The translations under genes and the position numbers were made by a program. A stretch of DNA of 64,000 bases from assembly GCA_035532495.1 (NCBI GenBank), contig DATKQX010000082.1, positions 4,399-68,398 on the forward strand, read 5' to 3'. The number at the start of each line of letters is the position of its first letter. The first letter of the stretch is position 1. Below are positions 53,643 to 63,104 of this stretch, piece after piece. The notes beneath the pieces are model-generated. The model did no database searches. It was not told the DNA's origin and saw only the letters and a list, made by a program, of their open reading frames with translations. Source of the DNA: Candidatus Saccharimonadales bacterium. Lineage in GTDB: Bacteria; Chloroflexota; Dormibacteria; Aeolococcales; Aeolococcaceae.

Positions 53643-54902
53643 GTGTATCGTCCGAGCGACATGCCGAGCCCGGATTCGACTGATGTCGGGACGATGCCGT
53701 CGCTCGGCGACGTGCCCGAGCACATGCATGCGTCGCTGATCCGTCCGGAGCGGTACGGCGATCCGCAGACGGCATTCGAGGTGGAGACGGTTGCGACTCC
53801 GACGCCGGGTCGGGGCGAGGCGCTCGTCTATGTGATGGCGGCGGGTGTCAATTACAACAACGTCTGGGCAGCCCTCGGTCGTCCGGTCGACGTCATCGCG
53901 GCGCGCCTGAAAGCCGGCGCGCACGAGCCGTTTCACATCGGAGGCAGCGATGCCTCCGGGATCGTGTGGGCGGTCGGCGAGGGAGTCGACAGCGTCGCGG
54001 TCGGCGACCACGTCGTCGCCCATTGCGGCATGTGGGATCCCGCCGACCCGTGGATTGTCGGGGGCGGCGATCCGATCATCGCCCCGAGCGCGCGGATCTG
54101 GGGGTACGAGACGAATTGGGGGAGCTTTGCGCAGTACACACTCGTGCAGGCACATCAGTTGCTCCGCAAGCCGCCGCAGTTGAGCTGGGCTGCCGCGGCC
54201 GCGGGCACGCTGGTCGGTGCCACCGCATACCGGATGCTCTGCTCGTGGCACCCGCACACGGTTCGCGAGGGCGACGTGGTGCTCATCTGGGGCGGATCGG
54301 GGGGTCTCGGTTCGCAGGCGATCCAGATCGCCAAGGCCAAGGGCGCGATCCCGGTCGCCGTCACGTCGGGGCCCGAACGCGGCCGGTACTGCATCGACCT
54401 CGGCGCGCGCGGCTACATCGACCGGCGCGACTTTTCGCACTGGGGCGTCATCCCGGATTGGCGCGACGATGCGGCGTTCAGCGAGTGGACCGCGGGCGCG
54501 CGCGCCTTCGGCAAGGCGCTCTGGGATGTCGTCGGCGAGCGGCGCAACCCGCGCATCGTCTTCGAGCATCCGGGCGAGGCCACGATTCCAACGTCGATGT
54601 TCGTGTGTGAGAACGGCGGGATGGTGGTCATCTGCGCCGGCACCACCGGCTATCACGCAGCGGTGGATCTTCGTTATCTCTGGATGCGTCAGAAGCGGCT
54701 GCAGGGCTCGCACTTCGCGAACGATCAGGAGGCAGCCGCCTTCAACGACATGGTCATCAGCGGCGAGGTTGACCCGTGCCTGTCACGCACGTTCGTATTC
54801 GATGAGGTCGGCGTCGCCCATCAGCTGATGCGCGAGAACCTGCATCCGATGGGCAACATGGCCGTGCTCGTCGGCGCCCACGACGCGCAGGAGCGGGACT
54901 GA
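53643..54902 (+). CDS. ccr: crotonyl-CoA carboxylase/reductase
   Basis: MDR-family enzyme with Ccr-type segments ([43 protein letters not shown]). The start may be ATG 53661. Confidence 0.75.
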
Positions 54903-54903
54903 C

Positions 54904-55569
54904 CTACTGCTGCGCGGCGAGGTAGACGAGCGCAGCTTTCACGCGGCGGTGCACGTCGGGTTCCTCGGACAAGTCGAGCTTGGAGAAGATCGCGTTGATG
55001 TGCTTCTCCACCGCCCGTTCTGTGAGGAACAACGCGGCGGCGATGCCCGCGTTGTTGCGACCCATCGCGACCTGTTGCAGCACGTCCAGCTCGCGCGGCG
55101 TCAGCTGGGCGATCGGCGAGTTGCGGGCCGCGCTCCGTGCGGCAACGAGCGTCTCGACGACACGCGGATCGATCACCGAGCCGCCGCGCGAGACCTCGCG
55201 CACCGCCCCCACGAGCTGGTCGATGTCGGAGACACGCTCCTTGAGGAGATAGGCTCGGCCGCTCGCACCTTTCTCGAGCAACGCGAGCGCGTACTCGGGT
55301 TCCGCGTACTGGCTGAGAACGACGACACCGACCTCGGGTCGCTCGATGCGCAGCCGTTCGGCGGCGCGCAACCCCTCGTCGGTGCCTGTCGGTGGCATGC
55401 GGATGTCGGTGATGACCACCGCCGGGCTGTGCTCCTCGATCGCCCGCTCCAGCTCTGGGAGGTCGGCGCAGGATGCGCGCAACTCGATCTCGTCGGACGC
55501 TTCGAGCAGCTGACGGATGCCTTCGCGGAGAAGGTAGTTGTCCTCCGCGAGGACCACACGGATCGGCAC
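54904..55569 (-). CDS. NarL/FixJ-family response regulator (REC + LuxR HTH)
   Basis: REC (VVITDIRMPP) plus LuxR HTH (LTPRELDVLQQVAMGRNNAGIAAALFLTERAVEKHINAIFSKL). Confidence 0.9.
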   Translation of the reverse strand: MPIRVVLAEDNYLLREGIRQLLEASDEIELRASCADLPELERAIEEHSPAVVITDIRMPPTGTDEGLRAAERLRIERPEVGVVVLSQYAEPEYALALLEKGASGRAYLLKERVSDIDQLVGAVREVSRGGSVIDPRVVETLVAARSAARNSPIAQLTPRELDVLQQVAMGRNNAGIAAALFLTERAVEKHINAIFSKLDLSEEPDVHRRVKAALVYLAAQQ

Positions 55570-55608: not shown

Positions 55609-55629
55609 GCATCACCCACCAAGTGATGC
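55609..55629. promoter_or_regulatory. perfect 7-bp inverted repeat in the divergent RR/REC intergenic region
   Basis: GCATCAC-ccaccaa-GTGATGC. It lies 40 nt upstream of the LuxR-type RR start and 58 nt upstream of the REC gene. Confidence 0.4.
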
Positions 55630-55686: not shown

Positions 55687-56067
55687 ATGAGCGTCCGGGT
55701 GTTGATCGTCGACGACCAGGCACCGTTCCGCGACGTGGCTCGAACGGTCGTGGAGCTCACCGACGGATTCGAGGTGGTGGGAGAGGTCGAAACCGGTGAG
55801 GACTCGGTCAACTCCGCGCGCGAGCTGCATCCCGATCTCGTCTTGATGGACGTGAACCTGCCCGGGATGAGCGGGCTCGACGCGACCAGGGAGATCCTCG
55901 CCGGAGTCGAGGCTACGCGACCGGTCGTGGTCCTCGTGCTGTCGACGTATGAAGCCGATGAATACGGCCCACGCGCGGCCGAGGCGGGAGCGGCAGGGTT
56001 CATCTCGAAGTCGGAGTTCAGCCCCGACCGGCTGATCGAAGCCTGGGCCGCTGCATCGGCGGGGTAG
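55687..56067 (+). CDS. single-domain response regulator (REC only)
   Basis: MSVRVLIVDDQAPFR...DLVLMDVNLPGMSGLD...FISKS. 126 aa. Confidence 0.85.
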   Translation: MSVRVLIVDDQAPFRDVARTVVELTDGFEVVGEVETGEDSVNSARELHPDLVLMDVNLPGMSGLDATREILAGVEATRPVVVLVLSTYEADEYGPRAAEAGAAGFISKSEFSPDRLIEAWAAASAG

Positions 56068-56073
56068 AACGCG

Positions 56074-58212
56074 TCAGACCGCGACCGGGTCGCGAGCCGG
56101 AGCCGGCAACCCGCCACGAACCGTGGTCCCTGCGCCGGGACGTGAGGTGACCTCCACGGTGCCGCCGAGTGCGTCGATGCGGTCGGCCATATTGGTCAGG
56201 CCCGCGCCCTTCTTGGCGATGGCTGAGTCGAAGCCGGTCCCGTCGTCGGTGACGCTGAAGGTGAGCGTTCCACCGTCGGCACGCACACGAACGACGACGT
56301 GCGTCGCCATCGCATACTTCTGCACGTTCTGCAGCGCCTCGAGAACGCAGAAGTACACCGTCGCCTCGACGTCCTGCGAGTAGCGGGCAACGCCTTCGGC
56401 TTCGACCGTTACCGGCACCGTTGCTTTGCGAGCCTGCGATTCCAGCGCGACGCGAAGTCCTTTGTCGGCGAGCAACGGTGGGTAGATTCCGCGAGCGAGA
56501 TCTCGCAGCGTCTCGAGTGCCTCATCCGCATCAGCCTTGAGCTGTTGCAGGGTCGCCGCGGCTTTCGCCGGGTCGCGGCCGACGAGCAGCCCGGCGAGCC
56601 CGAGCTTCACCTTCAGTGCAACCAGGTGTTGCTGTGCGCCGTCGTGGAGGTTGCGTTCCAGACGCCGGCGCTCCAGGTCCTGTGCGCTCACCAACCGCTG
56701 CCGTGACGCGCGCAGCTCAACGAGCCGGGCCTGCAGGTCGGCGCTCAGTCCGACGTTCTTGAGCACGAGCCCGGCTTGCTGCGCAAGGTCGTCGATGAGC
56801 TTGTCCTCGATGGGCGTCAAGGCTTCGCCCCTGCGCTTGCTGACGCTCAGTGCGCCGAGCACTTCACCCTGGTGACGCACTTCCACCGCCCGCGTCGCGG
56901 GCGGCAGCGTCGGCAGTGATCCGTTGCTCAGGGGCAGCGACTGGTGTGCAGCGGCTCCGTCTGGATATGTCGCCGCAGGACGAAGTTCGGCCATCCCGCG
57001 CAACCAAACGGTCGCCGACTCCGCGCCCGTTCCTTCCTGCAACACCCTCGCCATGCGCGGCAGCACTTCGTCGGCAGCGTACGCCTCCGCCACCCGCCCC
57101 GAGAACTCGCTCAACACCTCGTATGGTGTCGCACGTTTCCCATAGACGAGCCGGTTCGCGATTCTCTGGAGGCGCTCGCGCACAGGCTGGAACCCGATGG
57201 CGACGATCGCGGTGGCCAGGATCGACAGCGCAAGGTTCGGCTTGCCTCCACTGCCTATCAGCGTCCCGATCCCCACCGCGATGCCCACATACACCGCCGT
57301 GATGAATACCGCAAGTGAGCCGTACACCAGCGTCCGGCTGATGATGATGTCAATGTCGTAGAGGCGATACTTCAGCACGGCGATGCCGATTGCGATGGGG
57401 AGGCCAACCGCAAACCCGAGGATGTTGACGACCAGCAAGGCGTCGTCCGTAACGAAGCTCGCCTGCGGTGCCGCGAGAGAGCCGAGGCTGACCGCTAGGG
57501 TCGCCAAAACAGTGGTCACCACGACATACGCAATCCACTTCAACTGCTCCCGTTCCTCGCCCTGTGCCCGTCGAAGCCGCACCAGCGGCGCCGTTCCGGC
57601 CACGAGCAGGAGGGCGGTCCCAACAATCCACAGATATCCGAGCGGCCCATCCGCGAGGGTGACGAGTGTCCTGATGGCAACCGGGTTGGGGAATTGCGGC
57701 TGATTGTCAGGACCGTCCAGCGGTGTTGCACCCAGAGCCCCGAGCACAATCGCGATCAGCAACGTGGTGATCACGGCGACCGGGATCATCGGGCGCCACC
57801 GGCTGGAAGGGAGGCGCCCGTCGGGAATCAACAGCAGCGTCACGGTGGCGCCGCCTGCCGGATACACGAACAGCTCCGAGAAACTCGACCACCACAGGGA
57901 CCATTGCGCCCCTCCGGCGCCGGGATACGTGTAGACCGCGAAGCGGGCGTACTGCGCGGCTACTCCGCCCCCGCCCATGACGACCGCCATGAACAGAAAG
58001 AGCCACCCCACCGAATTGCACGGCCGTTTCGACGCGATCAAGCCGCCGACGAGCGCAAAGGTCAGCGACATCACTATCTCGAGCGGGTTGGCGGCTCCGA
58101 AACTGTGGATGGACCCGCGGTTCGCCACGGCCAGCGCGGCCGTGCCGGCACCAAGAGCGACTCCGAGTGACGCGATGCTCCACGCAAGTCGCGACACGGT
58201 GCGTGTGCTCAC
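56074..58212 (-). CDS. sensor histidine kinase (multi-TM, GAF-like, HisKA_3, HATPase_c)
   Basis: About 8 N-terminal TM helices, a GAF-like segment, the H-box NLHDGAQQHLVAL, and the G-boxes TDDGTGFD and GLTNMADRIDALGG. Confidence 0.9.
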   Translation of the reverse strand: MSTRTVSRLAWSIASLGVALGAGTAALAVANRGSIHSFGAANPLEIVMSLTFALVGGLIASKRPCNSVGWLFLFMAVVMGGGGVAAQYARFAVYTYPGAGGAQWSLWWSSFSELFVYPAGGATVTLLLIPDGRLPSSRWRPMIPVAVITTLLIAIVLGALGATPLDGPDNQPQFPNPVAIRTLVTLADGPLGYLWIVGTALLLVAGTAPLVRLRRAQGEEREQLKWIAYVVVTTVLATLAVSLGSLAAPQASFVTDDALLVVNILGFAVGLPIAIGIAVLKYRLYDIDIIISRTLVYGSLAVFITAVYVGIAVGIGTLIGSGGKPNLALSILATAIVAIGFQPVRERLQRIANRLVYGKRATPYEVLSEFSGRVAEAYAADEVLPRMARVLQEGTGAESATVWLRGMAELRPAATYPDGAAAHQSLPLSNGSLPTLPPATRAVEVRHQGEVLGALSVSKRRGEALTPIEDKLIDDLAQQAGLVLKNVGLSADLQARLVELRASRQRLVSAQDLERRRLERNLHDGAQQHLVALKVKLGLAGLLVGRDPAKAAATLQQLKADADEALETLRDLARGIYPPLLADKGLRVALESQARKATVPVTVEAEGVARYSQDVEATVYFCVLEALQNVQKYAMATHVVVRVRADGGTLTFSVTDDGTGFDSAIAKKGAGLTNMADRIDALGGTVEVTSRPGAGTTVRGGLPAPARDPVAV

Positions 58213-59525
58213 GCCGTCGCCATCCCGATGCGGTACGCGCCCACCGGCGTGTGACGTCCTTTGACCAGCGCCGGCTCGATGCGCTCTGCAGCCGGCTTCT
58301 CCACCAGCGCGTCGTACGTCGGCTCACTGAGCACCGTCTGTCCGCCCTCGCCCCATTGTTGCAACCGCTGCGCGAGGTTCACGGCGTCGCCCACGACCGA
58401 GTATTCGAGGCGCTCCTCCGACCCGAGCAGTGCGGCAGCGACGTCTCCCGTGGACAGCCCGATGCCGATGTGGAATGGCGGCAAGCCTTGTGCCGCCCAT
58501 CGCTCGTTGACGCGGTCCTGCGCGGCATGCATCGCCAGCGCGGCGGCCAGGGAACGCTGTGCGTGATCCGCCTGCGGCAACGGCGCGCCGAAGACCGCCA
58601 TCACCGCATCACCGACGAACTGCATGACCGTGCCGCCCTCGTCCAACACCGCACGATTCATCGCGGCGCGATGCTCGTTGAGCTGACCTGCAAGCACCGA
58701 GGGATCCGACGCCTCGGCGATGGTTGAGTACGCGCGAATATCGGACATGAGCACGGTTACGGTGAGACGCTCCGTCCGTCCCGGTTCCACGCCGCGCTCG
58801 CGCATCTGCTCGGCGACGCCGCCCGGCAGCATGCGACTCAGACTCTCGCCCTGCTCCTCGCGATCGACGATGACCTTGTGGAGCAACCGCAACCGGTCGA
58901 GTGCACCCTGCGTACCGGCGCTGGCCTGTTGCGCGAGCTTGAGGAAGAGCTGCTCGACGTCGTCGCCGACCGAGGTCGGCGTTGCGTGCAGGGAGGCGGC
59001 GATCGCCTTGATCGGCTTGCCTTCGGCGACCATGCGCAGCAGGCGCTCCTCGGGGCCGCTGAGCCCACCCGCTTCGCTCACGGGTTTGGTCAGCGCATCA
59101 ACGATGCGAGGGTCGAGCATCGAACCACCGGTGCTCACCTCGCGCACTGCTCGCGCGAGCTGATCGCCGTCGCCGACACGGTCCTTGAGGAGGTACGCGT
59201 AGCCGGCTGCCCCTTCGCTGAGCAGCGCGATGGCGTATTCGGGCTCGTCGTACTGCGACAGGATGACGACCCCCGTGCCGGGATTGCGCATGCGCACGAT
59301 GCGCGCCGCGCGGATGCCCTCGTCCGTGAAGTCCGGTGGCATGCGGATATCGGTGACGACCACCTGCGGCACGTGCTCGGCAGCGCCCGCGAGCAGTTCG
59401 TCGTAATCGCCGGCGACGCCGACGACCTCGAGGTCCCCCGCGATGGAGAGCAGCGCTCGAACGCCTTCCCGGACGATGAGATTGTCGTCCGCGAGGACGA
59501 CGCGGATCATTGCTTCCGAGGGCAT
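58209..59525 (-). CDS. response regulator fused to LuxR-type HTH and class III adenylyl/guanylyl cyclase domain
   Basis: REC (VVVTDIRMPP), HTH (LSGPEERLLRMVAEGKPIKAIAASLHATPTSVGDDVEQLFLKL), and cyclase (VTVLMSDIRAYSTIAE...VMQFVGDAVMAVFGAP...IGIGLSTGDV...EYSVVGDAVNLAQRL). Overlaps the kinase gene by 4 nt. Confidence 0.85.
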   Translation of the reverse strand: MPSEAMIRVVLADDNLIVREGVRALLSIAGDLEVVGVAGDYDELLAGAAEHVPQVVVTDIRMPPDFTDEGIRAARIVRMRNPGTGVVILSQYDEPEYAIALLSEGAAGYAYLLKDRVGDGDQLARAVREVSTGGSMLDPRIVDALTKPVSEAGGLSGPEERLLRMVAEGKPIKAIAASLHATPTSVGDDVEQLFLKLAQQASAGTQGALDRLRLLHKVIVDREEQGESLSRMLPGGVAEQMRERGVEPGRTERLTVTVLMSDIRAYSTIAEASDPSVLAGQLNEHRAAMNRAVLDEGGTVMQFVGDAVMAVFGAPLPQADHAQRSLAAALAMHAAQDRVNERWAAQGLPPFHIGIGLSTGDVAAALLGSEERLEYSVVGDAVNLAQRLQQWGEGGQTVLSEPTYDALVEKPAAERIEPALVKGRHTPVGAYRIGMATA

Positions 59526-59643
59526 TGGCCCACTCTAGTCAGCCCGGTGCAGGATGAAATGGGGCTGCCACCACGATCCCCGGGTGCGGTCCTCACCGTC
59601 GGCTGTGGTCCGTGCACCCTCGACGCCGGTTCGGGCGGGGGCG

Positions 59644-60672
59644 ATGATCACGACCACGGAGGACATCAGCATGCGTATCCAGTCATCGGTGACGTCAATT
59701 TCGTGGATCCCCTCTGAAGCAATTGAAGGGATGACAAGACTGCCGTTCGAGATGGGTGTGGCCCACTACGACGACCCGCCGCCGGACCACATCGACGCGC
59801 TCGACGCCCTTCGCGAGGCGGATCGGTTCCGCTTCGCCAATGAGTTGAGCGCATGGATCGAGGTGGACGGCGGGCGCATCACAGACTGTGGACAGTCAGG
59901 CGGCGGCCACATCGGCGCGACCACGCTCCGCCTCGGTGGTCGCGGCATGACGTTCGCCGCCGTGGCGTTTCCCGACCGGCGGCAGGAGCCCGTCACGGGT
60001 GACGGCTGGGTCCGTTTCACGCAGACGGCGGGTGGACGCACGGGCGTTCCGGCGCCCCGCCGCGTGAGCCACCCTCCGTTCGTCCAGGTGACCGCTCCGC
60101 TGGCGTGGACGACGCTGTCCCTCACGATCTTCGCTGACGGGTCCTCCACACACGAGGTCACCGGCGCAAGCCCGTTTCCACGTCACTGGATCTACGACCG
60201 CGAGCGGAACCTCGTCATGAAGTCCGGCCTCGTCGATTTCAAGCGCTGGTCGCACCATGCGTTCGGCGATCACACGCCCTGGGGCGATGAGGACTCGCCG
60301 GCGCTCGTGACCGCGGTCGAGACCGCGCTCGAGCGCGAGCTCTCGCTGCGACTCATGCGCGGGTCCGCGAAACCGCGCATCGAGACGGTCAAAGCGGGCC
60401 AGGCTCTTGTCGAGCAGGGCCAGCCCGGGAATGAGATGTACGTGCTACTCGACGGCGTGCTCTCGGTCGATGTCGACGGCGCCCCGGTCGCGCAGGTCGG
60501 TCCGGGTGCTGTGGTCGGGGAGCGAGCGCTGCTCGAGGAGGGCCGTCGCACAGCGACCCTTCGCGCGGAGACCGCATGCAAGGTGGCCGCGGTGTCGGGC
60601 GCCGAGGTCGACCCTGAGCTCCTCAGCCGGCTGGCTGCCGACCATCGCCGGGAGGCGGATCAACCCGTCTGA
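59644..60672 (+). CDS. cyclic-nucleotide-binding-domain protein with uncharacterised ~250-aa N-terminal domain
   Basis: C-terminal cNMP-binding beta-roll (VKAGQALVEQGQPGNEMYVLLDGVLSVDVDG...VVGERALLEEGRRTATLRA). The N-terminal region was not recognised. The start is ATG 59644 or 59671. Confidence 0.75.
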   Translation: MITTTEDISMRIQSSVTSISWIPSEAIEGMTRLPFEMGVAHYDDPPPDHIDALDALREADRFRFANELSAWIEVDGGRITDCGQSGGGHIGATTLRLGGRGMTFAAVAFPDRRQEPVTGDGWVRFTQTAGGRTGVPAPRRVSHPPFVQVTAPLAWTTLSLTIFADGSSTHEVTGASPFPRHWIYDRERNLVMKSGLVDFKRWSHHAFGDHTPWGDEDSPALVTAVETALERELSLRLMRGSAKPRIETVKAGQALVEQGQPGNEMYVLLDGVLSVDVDGAPVAQVGPGAVVGERALLEEGRRTATLRAETACKVAAVSGAEVDPELLSRLAADHRREADQPV

Positions 60673-61471
60673 CCGCAGCGAGCACGTGATCCATCGCGAC
60701 CTCCGGCGTCAGCGTCGCGACCTCCACCCTGCGCCCGCTGAGCAGCCAGTCGATCTCGTCGGGGCGCAACAGCGAGCTGAGGTCTCGCGGCAGGCGCGCC
60801 GGCGCTCCCTCGATGACCTGATGCGACGGACCATCGACATCCGACGGGCGCAGCCCTGCGTCCTCGACGGCGATGCCCTCGTCGCGGAGGTTGAGCACCA
60901 GCGCGCACCCACGCGGGGATGCGTCGTGCAGGACGATCGCTTTGCCGTCGGGCGCCGCGGCGCTGCCATCCTTCGCGGCAACCACGGCGACGACGCCGAG
61001 ATCCACGTGCGCGAGATTTGCCGCGACCATGCTTGCGGTGTCCGGCGTGTCGCAGATGACGGTCGTCTGGTCCGCGCTGCTCGGATCGGGCGCCGCCAGC
61101 GTTGCGTCCGGATCGATGAGTCCGTCAGGCCTGAGGTCGCCGAACCGGGTCCTGAACTCGTCGAAGGAGACAGCGAGCACGCGTCCGATGAGCACCGGCC
61201 GCCGCAGCCGTCCGATGACGCCGGTGAGCAGGAGCGCAACGCCAAGTGAGACGAGCAACACGAACGCGACCTTGATGCCGATGAGGATGAGTCCAACGAG
61301 AATCAAGAGGACGCCGAGCCCGATCTCCCCAGTGGACGCGGCGTTCGAGGTGGGTGTTTCAGCGCGCGCGCAGGTCGCGTAGTAGAGCTGACGCTGCGTG
61401 TACCGCCAGCCGCCGGACGCAAGCGCCGCGGCCGCGTCTTCGACGAGCAGTGGGGTGACCGGAAGCGCCAT
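60623..61471 (-). CDS. hypothetical membrane protein with Spo11/TopoVI-A-like Tyr motif and degenerate Toprim-like C-terminal region
   Basis: ATG 61471 (MALPVTPLL...). GGWRYTQRQLYY, then two TM helices, then TTVICDTPDTASMVAANL, VLHDASPRGCAL and RRVEVATLTP. The family assignment is speculative. Confidence 0.5.
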   Translation of the reverse strand: MALPVTPLLVEDAAAALASGGWRYTQRQLYYATCARAETPTSNAASTGEIGLGVLLILVGLILIGIKVAFVLLVSLGVALLLTGVIGRLRRPVLIGRVLAVSFDEFRTRFGDLRPDGLIDPDATLAAPDPSSADQTTVICDTPDTASMVAANLAHVDLGVVAVVAAKDGSAAAPDGKAIVLHDASPRGCALVLNLRDEGIAVEDAGLRPSDVDGPSHQVIEGAPARLPRDLSSLLRPDEIDWLLSGRRVEVATLTPEVAMDHVLAAVRRVDPPPGDGRQPAG

Positions 61472-61496
61472 CGCGGGGAGTGTATATGCTGCTTTG

Positions 61497-63104
61497 ATGG
61501 CGCACGCTGAGCGAAAGGATCTTTTCGAGACCGGCAGCGGCATCCCTGTCGCGCCGCTGTACACCGCGAAGGATCTCCCCGGCCATGACGCGATGCGCGA
61601 CGAGGGCCTCCCCGGTCAGCCTCCCTTCACGCGTGGTATCCAGCCGACGATGTACCGGGGGCGTCTCTGGAGCATCCGCCAGTACGCGGGTTTCGGAACT
61701 GCCACCGATGCCAACGCGCGTTTTCGCTACCTGCTCGCGCAGGGACAGCCGGGACTCTCGGTGGCCTTCGACCTGCCGACTCAGATGGGTCTCGACAGCG
61801 ACGATCCACGCAGCGCCGGCGAGGTGGGCCAGGTGGGTGTCGCCATCGACTCGGTGCGCGACATGCAGGATCTCTTCACGGACATCCCGCTCAGCGACGT
61901 GAGCACATCGATGACCATCAACGCTCCGGCGCCGGTGCTCGTTGCGATGTACGTCGTCGTCGCCGAACGTCAGGGCGTCGATGCCCGGTCTGTCATGGGC
62001 ACGGTTCAGAACGACGTCCTCAAGGAGTACATCGCCCGCGGAACGTTCATCTATCCGCCGCGACCGTCATTGCGGCTGGCCGCCGACCTCATCGCGTGGT
62101 GCACGGTGCACGCACCGAAATTCAATCCGATCTCGCTGTCCGGGTATCACATCCGCGAGGCGGGGAGCACCGCAGTGCAGGAGATGGCGTTTGCGATCGC
62201 CAACGCGATCGCGTACGTCGAAGCGTCGGTTGCGCGCGGTGTCGGCATTGACGACTTCGCGCCGAAGCTCTCGTGGATCTTCAACACGCACATCGATTTC
62301 TTCGAAGAGATCGCCAAGTACCGCGCGCTGCGACGCATGTGGGCGAGGGTGATGGCGGAGCGCTTCGGCGCGCGCGATCCGAGGTCGCTGATGTTGCGGA
62401 CTCATACGCAGACCGGTGGATCAACGCTGACTGCGCAACAGCCCGAGAACAACATCGTGCGGGCCGCGATCGAGGCGCTCGCGGCGGTGCTGGGCGGCGT
62501 CCAGTCGCTCGCGCTCTCCTGTTACGACGAGGCCCTTTCGATACCGACGGAGAAGGCTCAACGCATCGCGGTACGCACGCAGCAGATCATCGCGGAGGAG
62601 ACGGGAGTCACAAACACGGTGGACCCGCTTGCGGGCTCCTACCACGTCGAGTGGCTCACCGATGAGTTGGAGCGACGCGCGCTGGCACTGCTTGCGGAGG
62701 TTGATGCTCGCGGCGGCGCGGTCGCCTGCATCGAGTCGGGCTGGATGCAGCAACTCATCCAGGACGAGGCGTACCGCACCGAGCGTGCCGTCGCCAGCGG
62801 CGACAAGGTGATCGTCGGCGTAAATCGCCACACCGAGACTGAGGAGGAGGGTGCCCCGCTCCTCTTCAGACCCGATGAGCGGGTCATGGCGGACCAGGCG
62901 CGCCGGCTCGCAGCACACCGCTCACTGAGGGATGCCGCGGGGGTCGACGCGTCGCTGACGGCCATCCACGAAGCGGCAACGAGCCCCGACGCCTCGCTCA
63001 TGCCGCGCATCCTCGACGCTGTTCGTGCGGAGGCGACGTTGGGCGAGATATGTGGGTCGCTAGGTGCCGTGTTCGGTGAGTATCACCCGCCGGCAACGAT
63101 CTGA
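61497..63104 (+). CDS. acyl-CoA (methylmalonyl-CoA-type) mutase large/catalytic subunit, no B12-binding domain
   Basis: PGQPPFTRGIQPTMYRGRLWSIRQYAGFG...GLSVAFDLPTQMGLDSD...TIN, TIM-barrel mutase motifs. It ends before any DxHxxG cobalamin-binding domain. Confidence 0.85.
   Translation: MAHAERKDLFETGSGIPVAPLYTAKDLPGHDAMRDEGLPGQPPFTRGIQPTMYRGRLWSIRQYAGFGTATDANARFRYLLAQGQPGLSVAFDLPTQMGLDSDDPRSAGEVGQVGVAIDSVRDMQDLFTDIPLSDVSTSMTINAPAPVLVAMYVVVAERQGVDARSVMGTVQNDVLKEYIARGTFIYPPRPSLRLAADLIAWCTVHAPKFNPISLSGYHIREAGSTAVQEMAFAIANAIAYVEASVARGVGIDDFAPKLSWIFNTHIDFFEEIAKYRALRRMWARVMAERFGARDPRSLMLRTHTQTGGSTLTAQQPENNIVRAAIEALAAVLGGVQSLALSCYDEALSIPTEKAQRIAVRTQQIIAEETGVTNTVDPLAGSYHVEWLTDELERRALALLAEVDARGGAVACIESGWMQQLIQDEAYRTERAVASGDKVIVGVNRHTETEEEGAPLLFRPDERVMADQARRLAAHRSLRDAAGVDASLTAIHEAATSPDASLMPRILDAVRAEATLGEICGSLGAVFGEYHPPATI

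Follow-up and report, generated by a model that had tools for sequence, protein, structure and literature searches.

A widely conserved response-regulator cyclase of uncultured soil bacteria, with a degenerate LuxR-type module between its receiver and a class III cyclase domain

The window analysed here, a 64,000-nucleotide stretch of a contig from Candidatus Saccharimonadales bacterium, holds a gene whose product we call the RR-cyclase. Along this protein a NarL-type receiver is followed by a LuxR/GerE-derived helical module, a coiled coil with a cyclase transducer element (CTE) and a class IIIb cyclase domain. It is a real signalling enzyme, widely conserved, of uncultured soil bacteria. The gene, its parts and its neighbours are the following.

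58209..59525, (-) strand: response-regulator cyclase gene, 438 aa (open reading frame with ATG start, Pfam domains, homologues)
59133..59507, (-) strand: receiver (REC) of the NarL/FixJ subfamily, aa 7-131 (Response_reg match, invariant residues, AF2 model)
59349-59351, (-) strand: codon of the phospho-acceptor Asp59, within the REC domain
58914..59063, (-) strand: degenerate LuxR/GerE-type HTH relic, aa 155-204 (sub-threshold GerE, alignment to the paralogue, AF2 helices)
58791..58913, (-) strand: signalling helix and CTE, aa 205-245 (invariant columns, AF2, Foldseek)
58227..58775, (-) strand: class III (IIIb-like) cyclase homology domain, aa 251-433 (Guanylate_cyc match, solved relatives)
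58620-58622, (-) strand: Gln302 codon, within the cyclase domain
56074..58212, (-) strand: sensor histidine kinase, 712 aa (Pfam; GTG start overlapping the cyclase stop), with a multi-TM sensor at aa ~12-344, a divergent GAF at ~345-490, HisKA_3 at 514-579 and HATPase_c at 617-704
55687..56067, (+) strand: stand-alone (solo) receiver, convergent with the kinase gene (Response_reg E 2.4e-23)
54904..55569, (-) strand: NarL-type response regulator with an intact GerE HTH, paralogue of the fusion (Response_reg and GerE, E 1.7e-12)
59526..59670, no strand: divergent intergenic region of 145 bp between the cyclase gene and the CNB gene (sequence)
59671..60672, (+) strand: cyclic-nucleotide-binding (CNB) partner, 333 aa (cNMP_binding E 1.2e-16, homologues)
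59671-60375, (+) strand: all-beta, unannotated N-domain of the CNB partner, aa 1-235, preceding the C-terminal CNB domain

The receiver matches Pfam Response_reg over aa 9-109 (E 1.4e-14, 54.6 bits against a gathering cut-off of 30.2), as do all 41 aligned orthologues. Residues D13, D14, D59, S90 and K114 are invariant among 81 orthologues; the acidic pocket, the phospho-acceptor Asp, the switch Ser/Thr and the Lys of a receiver are thus all in place, and the AF2 model of the domain has the (beta-alpha)5 order.

Stop codon (cyclase) and GTG start (kinase) share the letters GTGA, the 4-nt overlap described in an earlier sequence-only reading of this DNA, and the two genes are translationally coupled. 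The same reading called the downstream protein a multi-TM GAF histidine kinase; the multi-TM part stands, with some 9-10 hydrophobic segments between aa 12 and 344, whereas the GAF domain of this copy stays below threshold (E 0.015-0.05) but is detected in 11 of 16 kinase orthologues and paralogues (best E 5.2e-5). Of 64 loci, 39 have a HisKA_3 kinase directly downstream on the same strand, and 41 of the 43 well-flanked loci encode one at some position. Moreover, homology (hhalign 98.3%, E 1.4e-14) links aa 42-240 of the sensor to the N-terminus of Gln-type one-component cyclases of ~600 aa, whose catalytic domains share 55-69% identity with that of the RR-cyclase and all carry Gln and Ser/Thr; this sensor and this output are thus also found united in one protein. 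From the GTGA overlap, the synteny and this natural sensor-cyclase fusion we infer that the kinase would transfer phosphate to the receiver.

The cyclase domain is complete, as had been claimed. Pfam Guanylate_cyc matches aa 255-426 (E 1e-22, 81.1 bits against a gathering cut-off of 21.9), the top matches among solved structures are Cya2 (2w01; E 2.8e-31, 33% identity), CyaB (3r5g) and CyaC (1wc0), and Foldseek superposes the domain on 2w01, 1wc0 and 3r5g at TM 0.82-0.89, as expected of a class III fold. Catalytic positions, assigned by alignment to Cya2, CyaB and CyaC, are conserved among the 81 orthologues: D262, D306, N383 and R387 are invariant, and R372 is found in 80. The two metal-binding Asp, the phosphate-binding Arg and the transition-state Asn and Arg are accordingly present, and the loss of catalytic residues that could have undone the assignment is not observed on alignment.

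The residues that select between ATP and GTP, to which the sequence-only reading had pointed as predictors of the substrate, could be located without conforming to either established rule. At the base-selecting (Lys/Glu) position Gln302 occurs in 81/81 orthologues, unlike the Lys of the adenylate cyclase pair (Lys with Asp/Thr) and unlike the Glu of the guanylate cyclase pair (Glu with Cys/Ser/Gly), which no orthologue has (0/81); the second specificity position, 376, is Ser in 53 and Thr in 28, as in class IIIb. Since Gln fits neither rule, the product may be cAMP, cGMP or both.

It could thus be hypothesized that the wiring is as we propose below while the messenger is a different one, the invariant Gln marking a guanylate cyclase, an enzyme that truly makes both cAMP and cGMP, or one that produces another cNMP, with the CNB protein as its dedicated receptor in a private circuit. 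Gln is shared with all 16 related membrane cyclases, and more distant members of the RR-cyclase architecture have the canonical Lys/Thr, so that Gln is a derived, selected state. Rv0386 of Mycobacterium tuberculosis, in which Castro et al. 2005 (ref 41 of PMC3466318) are reported to have found Gln at the Lys position, reportedly has a guanylate cyclase side activity of ~20% with its Gln-Asn pair. The Arg-Thr cassette of the CNB receptor is likewise that of the cGMP-selective PKG and CNG channels, and is also carried by the cAMP-preferring HCN channels. Finally, in the alignment to the guanylate cyclase Cya2, the top-scoring solved relative, Gln302 falls on Glu488, and replacement of this Glu by Lys converts that enzyme to an adenylate cyclase (PMC5995499). 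However, Gln is not Glu, class IIIb adenylate cyclases such as CyaB and CyaC typically have Ser/Thr as the second residue of the pair, the nearest relatives outside the clade are adenylate cyclase types with Lys/Thr, and the match to the pyrimidine cyclase 7r65 is weak (E 8e-4 versus 2.8e-31 for Cya2). We also know of no characterised guanylate cyclase that uses Gln, and on balance a different messenger seems to us rather unlikely.

Upstream of the catalytic core, L212, L215, I219, R222, G226, L229 and L233 are invariant at a spacing of 3-4 residues. The AF2 model has a helix at 206-231, a loop and a short helix at 237-243, and in Foldseek some 50 residues N-terminal to the core align with the linker and CTE of 6fht. 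The CTE of class IIIa/b cyclases has an FGRY motif, whose counterpart here is LSRMLP, with the invariant R231 matching its Arg; the CTE motif, its Arg and the role of the element are described in PMC5995499. Because the AF2 model is a monomer, with pLDDT < 50 at aa 219-235 of the signalling helix, the dimer mechanism proposed below is drawn by analogy.

Between receiver and signalling helix lies the stretch for which our results depart most from the sequence-only reading, which had seen in the first ~210 residues a paralogue of the regulator at 54904-55569 and in their last part a LuxR HTH. The paralogy is real and far beyond chance, as aa 7-197 of the fusion share 51% identity (99/196) with that regulator, E 7e-57 by BLASTP, HTH stretch included. 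Descent from a GerE domain is thereby confirmed, the alignment to the GerE domain of the paralogue being continuous up to aa 197, but the Pfam assignment is not. GerE is not called on the whole RR-cyclase, and for the excised aa 126-224 its score of 17.9 bits (E 0.0024) falls short of the cut-off of 23.5 bits. Of 41 orthologues, only 9 match at E <= 0.01, and the NCBIfam full-length NarL, UhpA, MctR and MadR models align to aa ~200, all under their cut-offs.

Two lines of evidence suggest that this module no longer binds DNA. First, R158 and the DNA-contact residues R184, K188, H189 and N191 of the paralogue, invariant in 43/43 of its orthologues, are all replaced in the RR-cyclases (R158 by Ala/Asp, R184 by Ala/Thr, K188 and H189 by Asp, N191 by Glu). 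The recognition helix, which reads TERAVEKHIN without variation in the 43 paralogue orthologues, is the least conserved part of the entire RR-cyclase, with a mean net charge of -1.8 in the fusions versus +1.5 in the paralogue. Secondly, a clade of short orthologues (359-361 aa) has lost aa ~150-227 in frame, and with them the whole HTH module, and has since diverged to 82-91% identity, yet synteny and catalytic residues are kept. What remains in the long forms is a scaffold: AF2 places helices at 157-167, 172-178 and 183-202, where GerE would have its fourth and last helix an unbroken helix extends into the cyclase, and the HTH scaffold residues L162, L163, A167, G169, I175, A176 and F194 are conserved in RR-cyclases. 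Since the scaffold is kept and also has family-specific invariant residues (E168, P171, K173, E191, A198 and G204), it retains some selected function. As judged from sequence, the module is a decayed relic that probably does not bind DNA.

These results disfavor the proposal, made in the sequence-only reading, that a single phosphorylation would control both DNA binding and cNMP synthesis. In its support, the segment shares ancestry with a functional GerE domain, GerE is still detectable in some orthologues, the fold with its three helices persists, and cyclases that share a polypeptide with a LuxR-type HTH occur in Mycobacterium (PMC3466318). The lost contacts, the acidic and variable helix, the exchanged fourth helix and the clade that is maintained without the module argue against it, as does the region upstream of the gene itself, where no copy of the palindrome of the paralogue (55609-55629) was found in 59526..59670. 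Given the sub-threshold score, the lost contacts and the module-free clade, joint control is unlikely, and we assign a bifunctional regulator only a small probability. It is more plausibly through the separate paralogue at 54904-55569 that the pathway acts on DNA.

Across the intergenic region, in which no sigma-70-like consensus was found, the divergent cNMP-binding gene noticed earlier is confirmed. Its ATG at 59671 is preceded by GGAGGA at 7 nt, and the start is fixed by homologues of 333 aa. The canonical phosphate-binding cassette GERALLE..RRTATLRA has the invariant Arg-Thr; the N-domain has no Pfam or PDB match. The CNB gene is divergently adjacent to the RR-cyclase gene in 59 of 74 loci and co-occurs with it in 41 of the 42 genomes of the class that have an RR-cyclase. 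In 7 of 48 genomes it is kept although no full-length RR-cyclase was detected there, so that the pairing of receptor and cyclase is not obligatory; one of the seven (G131) carries the short form.

The adjacency of cyclase and CNB genes, together with a putative effector domain of unassigned family, also recalls Pycsar, an anti-phage system in which the cyclase would make a cNMP alarm and the CNB effector would kill or arrest the cell. PADLOC PycC models do match the cyclase domain (best E 9.5e-23) and the PycTIR and Effector models the CNB domain of the partner (E 5e-12). These matches, however, are limited to the generic cyclase and CNB domains, and instead of a PycC-clade cyclase with a TIR or TM effector bearing an N-terminal CNB domain we find a cyclase far nearer to Cya2, CyaB and CyaC than to 7r65, and a partner with a C-terminal CNB domain and neither a TIR nor a TM effector. 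Furthermore, the cyclase is wired to a two-component kinase, the genes keep one conserved chromosomal site, between ccr and acyl-CoA mutase, in many relatives, and the RR-cyclase tree mostly tracks taxonomy. A defence role is therefore extremely improbable.

The RR-cyclase, its divergent CNB receptor, one or more HisKA_3 kinases, the solo receiver (35 of 43 well-flanked loci) and the NarL paralogue (30 of 43) form a conserved module. A second natural fusion, in which a homologue of the solo receiver is joined to the C-terminus of an RR-cyclase (P0241), supports the wiring of this module along with that of kinase sensor and Gln-type cyclase. The single-gene fusion of receiver, LuxR-derived module and complete class III cyclase stands as first described, but not its supposed rarity: 42 of the 101 genomes sampled from the same class have it, and it occurs in Acidimicrobiia and Nitriliruptoria as well. 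That two genes, one for a NarL-type regulator and one for a cyclase, were merged by a sequencing or assembly frameshift, for which one might cite the fragmented metagenome-assembled source (169 contigs, 86% complete) and a genome of the same genus (G180) in which the gene is broken into two frames, is excluded by more than 100 full-length homologues (73-97% identity) on independent contigs and relatives in at least 508 species genomes, by the same architecture and length in more than 100 protein clusters (JGI, ENA, NCBI and Logan assemblies) and in 80/80 fetched loci from two phyla, and by the junction at aa 205-250 being among the best-conserved stretches of the protein.

We consider it likely that the RR-cyclase is a phosphorylation-controlled nucleotide cyclase, the enzymatic output of a two-component pathway. 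The multi-TM/GAF HisKA_3 kinase would detect a membrane or envelope-associated signal, as two kinase paralogues elsewhere in the genome may do, and would phosphorylate Asp59. The change in the receiver would be relayed through the LuxR-derived module, now a linker or packing module, to a dimeric signalling helix and the CTE, and the two cyclase domains would be repositioned such that both active sites of a symmetric homodimer form; on this reading phosphorylation would activate rather than inhibit. With Gln in place of Lys or Glu, the product would most likely be cAMP, possibly with appreciable cGMP. It would be read locally by the divergent CNB protein, with the N-terminal domain as a putative effector. 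Kinases of the same family probably signal to the NarL paralogue and the solo receiver as well, so that the pathway would branch into a transcriptional and a second-messenger arm.

We found no biochemical data on any member of the family in the literature searched, and the closest known systems each share only part of this design. CyaC of Spirulina and Anabaena, a class IIIb cyclase, is activated by receiver phosphorylation (PMC3009899). The CyaC proteins of Spirulina platensis and Anabaena likewise have a receiver upstream of a class IIIb-type catalytic domain, and this domain is close to that of the RR-cyclase (1wc0, E 2.1e-23, TM about 0.85), with Ser/Thr at the second specificity position. 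CyaC, however, is a hybrid that carries a histidine kinase of its own as well as GAF domains and two receivers; its base-selecting residue is the canonical Lys, and it lacks a LuxR-derived module. The kinase of the RR-cyclase, by contrast, is a separate membrane protein, and the RR-cyclase has a NarL-type receiver. Cya2 of Synechocystis (2w01; E488K form 6fht) is the top match in sequence and fold for the catalytic domain and also has a coiled-coil linker and CTE ahead of the core (PMC5995499), but its specificity pair is Glu/Gly as opposed to Gln and Ser/Thr, and its input is a CHASE2 membrane sensor instead of a receiver.

Rv0386, Rv1358 and Rv2488c of M. tuberculosis are cyclase-ATPase-LuxR proteins (PMC3466318). 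Rv0386 resembles the RR-cyclase in uniting a class III cyclase and a LuxR-type HTH in a single polypeptide; the order is reversed, with the cyclase first, an AAA/NB-ARC ATPase between and no receiver, its HTH is regarded as intact, and its second specificity residue is Asn. The RR-cyclase, with Ser/Thr, no ATPase and the order receiver, HTH relic, cyclase, is not of this type. To NarL/FixJ regulators it is homologous over the first ~200 residues and similar in having a HisKA_3-type partner kinase, and it differs from them in lacking the DNA-contact residues and in having, in place of the last GerE helix, a signalling helix that connects to an enzyme domain. In the Rec-GGDEF diguanylate cyclases PleD, WspR and DgcR, receiver phosphorylation is reported to set a productive dimer via a helical linker (PMC8041772); the control logic matches, although the catalytic domain is GGDEF, not a class III domain, and makes a dinucleotide, and the linkers differ. 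In conclusion, the enzyme joins the receiver-controlled class III cyclases, as one in which a LuxR-derived relic sits between receiver and cyclase.

The gene under study encodes a protein in which a receiver, a module derived from a LuxR/GerE helix-turn-helix (HTH), a coiled coil with a cyclase transducer element and a class III cyclase domain follow one another in a single chain. It sits in a compact signalling island:

54904-55569, minus strand: NarL-type regulator with an intact GerE HTH (the NarL paralogue)
55687-56067, plus strand: solo receiver
56074-58212, minus strand: HisKA_3 sensor kinase
58209-59525, minus strand: receiver cyclase, a 438-aa open reading frame (ORF call and Pfam)
59671-60672, plus strand: CNB protein of 333 aa (the partner), divergent from the cyclase gene

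Pfam places the receiver domain of the 438-aa product at aa 9-109 (E 1.4e-14) and its class III cyclase domain at aa 255-426 (E 1e-22). The sequence-only reading had regarded the N-terminal part as a close paralogue of the NarL-type regulator at 54904-55569, and BLASTP bears this out with 51% identity over aa 7-197 (E 7e-57), the HTH stretch included. The gene layout it described also holds, insofar as the cyclase TGA stop and the GTG start of the 712-aa kinase overlap in the sequence GTGA, and the divergent neighbour does contain a cNMP-binding domain. A merger of two genes by a frameshift is ruled out on comparative grounds: more than 100 protein clusters from independent assemblies, with 73-97% identity, share its length and domain pair, and the domain junction region is among the best-conserved stretches of the protein. 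Relatives were found in at least 508 genomes in a scan with one genome per species, and the best 80 loci of that scan are all full length, with 65-94% identity, from Dormibacterota and Actinomycetota (Acidimicrobiia, Nitriliruptoria, Egibacteraceae and Euzebyaceae). One single-contig genome of the same genus (G180, C1:2514643-2515948) has the cyclase in two frames that overlap, corresponding to query aa 1-155 and 151-435, with one TAG, which reflects either breakage of this copy or an error of assembly.

Both ends of the protein carry the residues expected of working domains. To assign catalytic positions, the protein was aligned with Cya2, CyaB and CyaC, whose structures are solved. Across 81 orthologues the receiver residues D13, D14, D59, S90 and K114 are invariant, as are the cyclase metal aspartates D262 and D306 and the transition-state residues Asn383 and Arg387; the phosphate-binding Arg372 is kept in 80 of the 81. 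Loss of catalytic residues, which would have undermined the original proposal, was thus not found, and on this alignment we rule out an inactive pseudo-cyclase. An AF2 model (mean pLDDT 77) gives a (beta-alpha)5 receiver, three short helices (157-167, 172-178 and 183-202), a long helix (206-231), a short helix (237-243) and then the cyclase core. In Foldseek searches the core superposes on Cya2, CyaC and CyaB (TM 0.82-0.89), and the alignment takes in the approximately 50 residues ahead of it, which correspond to the 6fht linker and transducer element. Invariant L212, L215, I219, R222, G226, L229 and L233 are spaced in the 3-4 pattern expected for the core of a coiled coil, and the motif LSRMLP with its invariant Arg231 matches the FGRY motif and conserved Arg that characterize the cyclase transducer element (PMC5995499).

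The segment between receiver and coiled coil had been read as a LuxR-type HTH. Its GerE origin stands, but it probably no longer binds DNA. Pfam makes no GerE call on the whole protein, the excised segment reaches 17.9 bits where the cut-off is 23.5, and GerE is detected at E <= 0.01 in only 9 of 41 orthologues, so that we regard the segment as GerE-derived but degenerate. When 81 fusions were aligned with 43 orthologues of the NarL paralogue, the paralogue's R158, R184, K188, H189 and N191 proved invariant in the latter (recognition helix TERAVEKHIN), whereas the fusions carry Ala/Asp, Ala/Thr, Asp, Asp and Glu at these respective positions. Mean net charge of the recognition helix is -1.8 in the fusions versus +1.5 in the paralogue. 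The hydrophobic scaffold is nevertheless retained, and E168, P171, K173, E191, A198 and G204 are conserved specifically in the fusions; the module is therefore likely to be selected for something other than DNA contact. Judged from these alignments, the fusion HTH is a relic that has lost its DNA contacts.

A deletion that has arisen in nature agrees with this reading of the HTH as a relic, and amounts to a natural experiment:

L082, 6850-7935 (genome G131): short syntenic cyclase orthologue of 361 aa, residue ~149 joined directly to LSRMLP

Here the relic and the long helix are gone through in-frame loss of about 77 residues, and the receiver, the Gln and Ser of the specificity positions and every catalytic residue are kept. 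Since the 359-361-aa form occurs in seven protein clusters on independent contigs that have diverged to 82-91% identity, it is evidently maintained. The HTH is degenerate also in the distant full-length members P0250 and P0253 (45-48% identity), which makes the relic ancestral and the short form derived. With its DNA contacts apparently lost and an HTH-less clade in existence, the suggestion that one phosphorylation input controls both DNA binding and cNMP synthesis finds no support.

Gene neighbourhoods were counted over 80 loci, in subsets set by the available flank. In 59 of the 74 loci with enough flank the CNB-protein gene lies next to the cyclase gene and divergent from it, and in eight more it lies elsewhere in the locus; a HisKA_3 kinase follows downstream on the cyclase strand in 39 of 64. 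Where at least 5 kb was available on both sides (43 loci), the HisKA_3 kinase is present in 41, the solo receiver in 35 and the NarL paralogue in 30. In a sample of 101 genomes from the same GTDB class, the cyclase occurs in 42 and the partner's N-domain in 48, and 41 of the 42 cyclase genomes have both; none was found among 108 sampled genomes from the rest of the phylum. The genome to which the window belongs holds three full-length kinase paralogues, eight CNB proteins and three cyclases of class III; two of the kinase paralogues are encoded on contigs C62 and C157. It also has a second cyclase/receptor cluster, in which a 628-aa CNB-domain ORF adjoins a pair of ~1200-aa ORFs that carry class III cyclase domains (contig C124, 69361-77928). 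A crotonyl-CoA reductase-like gene (53643-54902) and an acyl-CoA mutase large-subunit gene (61398-63104) flank the signalling island, and these flanks recur in many Dormibacterota loci. In DNA of such high GC content, scans for promoter and terminator consensus sequences gave no useful signal.

The wiring is supported by two fusions found in nature. First, the membrane sensor of the kinase (aa 42-240, with the motif FPDGRLPS.RWR) is homologous to the N-terminus of Gln-type membrane cyclases, a relationship that is clear only by profile-profile comparison (probability 98.3%, E 1.4e-14) and weak in plain BLASTP (E 0.004 and 0.68). Sensor and output are thus also found joined in a single chain that bypasses the phosphotransfer step. 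Secondly, in P0241 (561 aa) a receiver cyclase continues at its C-terminus into a solo-receiver homologue. The membrane cyclases (P0266, P0276, P0293, P0303, P0305 and others, ~570-630 aa) combine a Gln-type catalytic domain with a multi-TM N-terminus homologous to the kinase sensor; P0276 gives a weak HisKA_7TM match.

A further element lies between the genes for the NarL paralogue and the solo receiver:

55609-55629: perfect inverted repeat GCATCAC-N7-GTGATGC, in the promoter region of the NarL paralogue

The repeat occurs in perfect form just once in the window, and it may serve the NarL paralogue as an operator. No perfect copy lies near the cyclase gene, and matches with up to three mismatches occur at chance level (11 versus 6.4 +/- 2.5).

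Homologues set the start of the partner at ATG 59671, giving 333 aa with GGAGGA upstream. Its cassette GERALLE..RRTATLRA is a canonical phosphate-binding cassette with invariant Arg-Thr. The 235-aa N-domain is all-beta and has many invariant polar residues (e.g. E16, H32, D34, R54, N57, R123, R171, H172 and K184). It had no match in Pfam (E <= 10) or NCBIfam, where the CNB domain alone was matched; a profile search of PDB sequences returned only a chance antibody match (E 1.1), and Foldseek with the full model found CNB domains only. At two loci (L081 in G162, L084 in G172) the partner gene is kept without an adjacent receiver cyclase, with just a solo-receiver fragment left nearby in L081 and a large unrelated ORF upstream in L084. 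The last ~50 nt of the CNB gene are shared with a minus-strand ORF (60623-61564), whose conservation is confined to close Dormibacterota relatives (55-85% identity) and which matches nothing in Pfam or PADLOC. A Pycsar-like defence function is unsupported, the PADLOC matches being at domain level only.

The product is a matter of real uncertainty. At the position occupied by Glu488 in Cya2 and by Lys in CyaB and CyaC, all 81 orthologues have Gln (Gln302), and the second specificity position is Ser or Thr. In Cya2, Glu488 determines base specificity, and E488K turns the enzyme into an adenylate cyclase (PMC5995499). The ~600-aa membrane cyclases carry Gln with Ser/Thr in 16 of 16 cases, their catalytic domains being 55-69% identical. 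P0250 and P0253 have Lys/Thr at this pair, and Gln is thus a derived, fixed state that the membrane cyclases share; on the tree the receiver cyclases with Gln group tightly in a single clade, a long branch apart from the Lys/Thr forms. To our knowledge, Rv0386 (Gln-Asn) is the only characterised Gln-bearing class III cyclase, and it is reportedly an adenylate cyclase with guanylate side activity. Based on this comparison we predict cAMP as the main product. A bolder, rather improbable reading takes Gln to mark a distinct class III clade, coupled to receivers and membrane sensors, whose messenger is not plain cAMP and is read by an orphan CNB receptor with a new effector fold in its N-domain, in a private circuit shared by Dormibacteria and some Actinomycetota. 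The messenger could then be cGMP, a balanced cAMP/cGMP mix made by an amide-switch mechanism, or another cNMP.

The observed domain content, site conservation, synteny and fusions can be assembled into a proposed circuit. The sensor kinase would phosphorylate Asp59 of the receiver, and the resulting change would pass via the relic module and the signalling helix with its transducer element to yield a productive cyclase homodimer, whose cNMP product would be read by the CNB partner. The intact NarL paralogue would provide a parallel DNA-binding arm. Receiver-activated class IIIb cyclases have a precedent in CyaC of Spirulina and Anabaena (PMC3009899).

CyaC resembles the fusion as a receiver-controlled class IIIb cyclase, Cya2 is the best match to its catalytic domain, and ordinary NarL regulators are also among the closest known systems. 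Rv0386 shares the Gln at the Lys position and a LuxR HTH in the same chain, but its domain order is opposite and an ATPase is present. A 2012 census of actinobacterial LuxR proteins listed cyclase plus LuxR for Mycobacterium only (PMC3466318), and our literature search found no paper on this receiver-relic-cyclase family. On the tree, Dormibacterota and Actinomycetota separate largely, not wholly: inter-phylum branches are short, and one Dormibacter group lies beside Actinomycetota. Taken with the inter-phylum identity of 65-70%, this pattern points to transfer of the module between these soil lineages, with the reservation that MAG labels are unreliable. Near-identical modules at five loci (L001, L003, L036, L042 and L077) were binned as Acidobacteriota, Saccharimonadota, Binatota or Gammaproteobacteria, but on the tree they fall within Dormibacterota or Actinomycetota sequences, and the bins are probably mislabelled or mixed.

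Only a few cases of class III cyclases under receiver control are known, from cyanobacteria, myxobacteria and amoebae; the present family is a compact, soluble, single-receiver version, and ~40% of the genomes sampled from this uncultured soil class encode it. Reuse of a DNA-binding domain as an interdomain linker is seen here in a clear natural example, with the deletion clade as a built-in control. The invariant Gln could inform how class III cyclases choose their purine, and the conserved partner, with a domain that has no known relative, offers a tractable entry to what cyclic nucleotides control in these bacteria.
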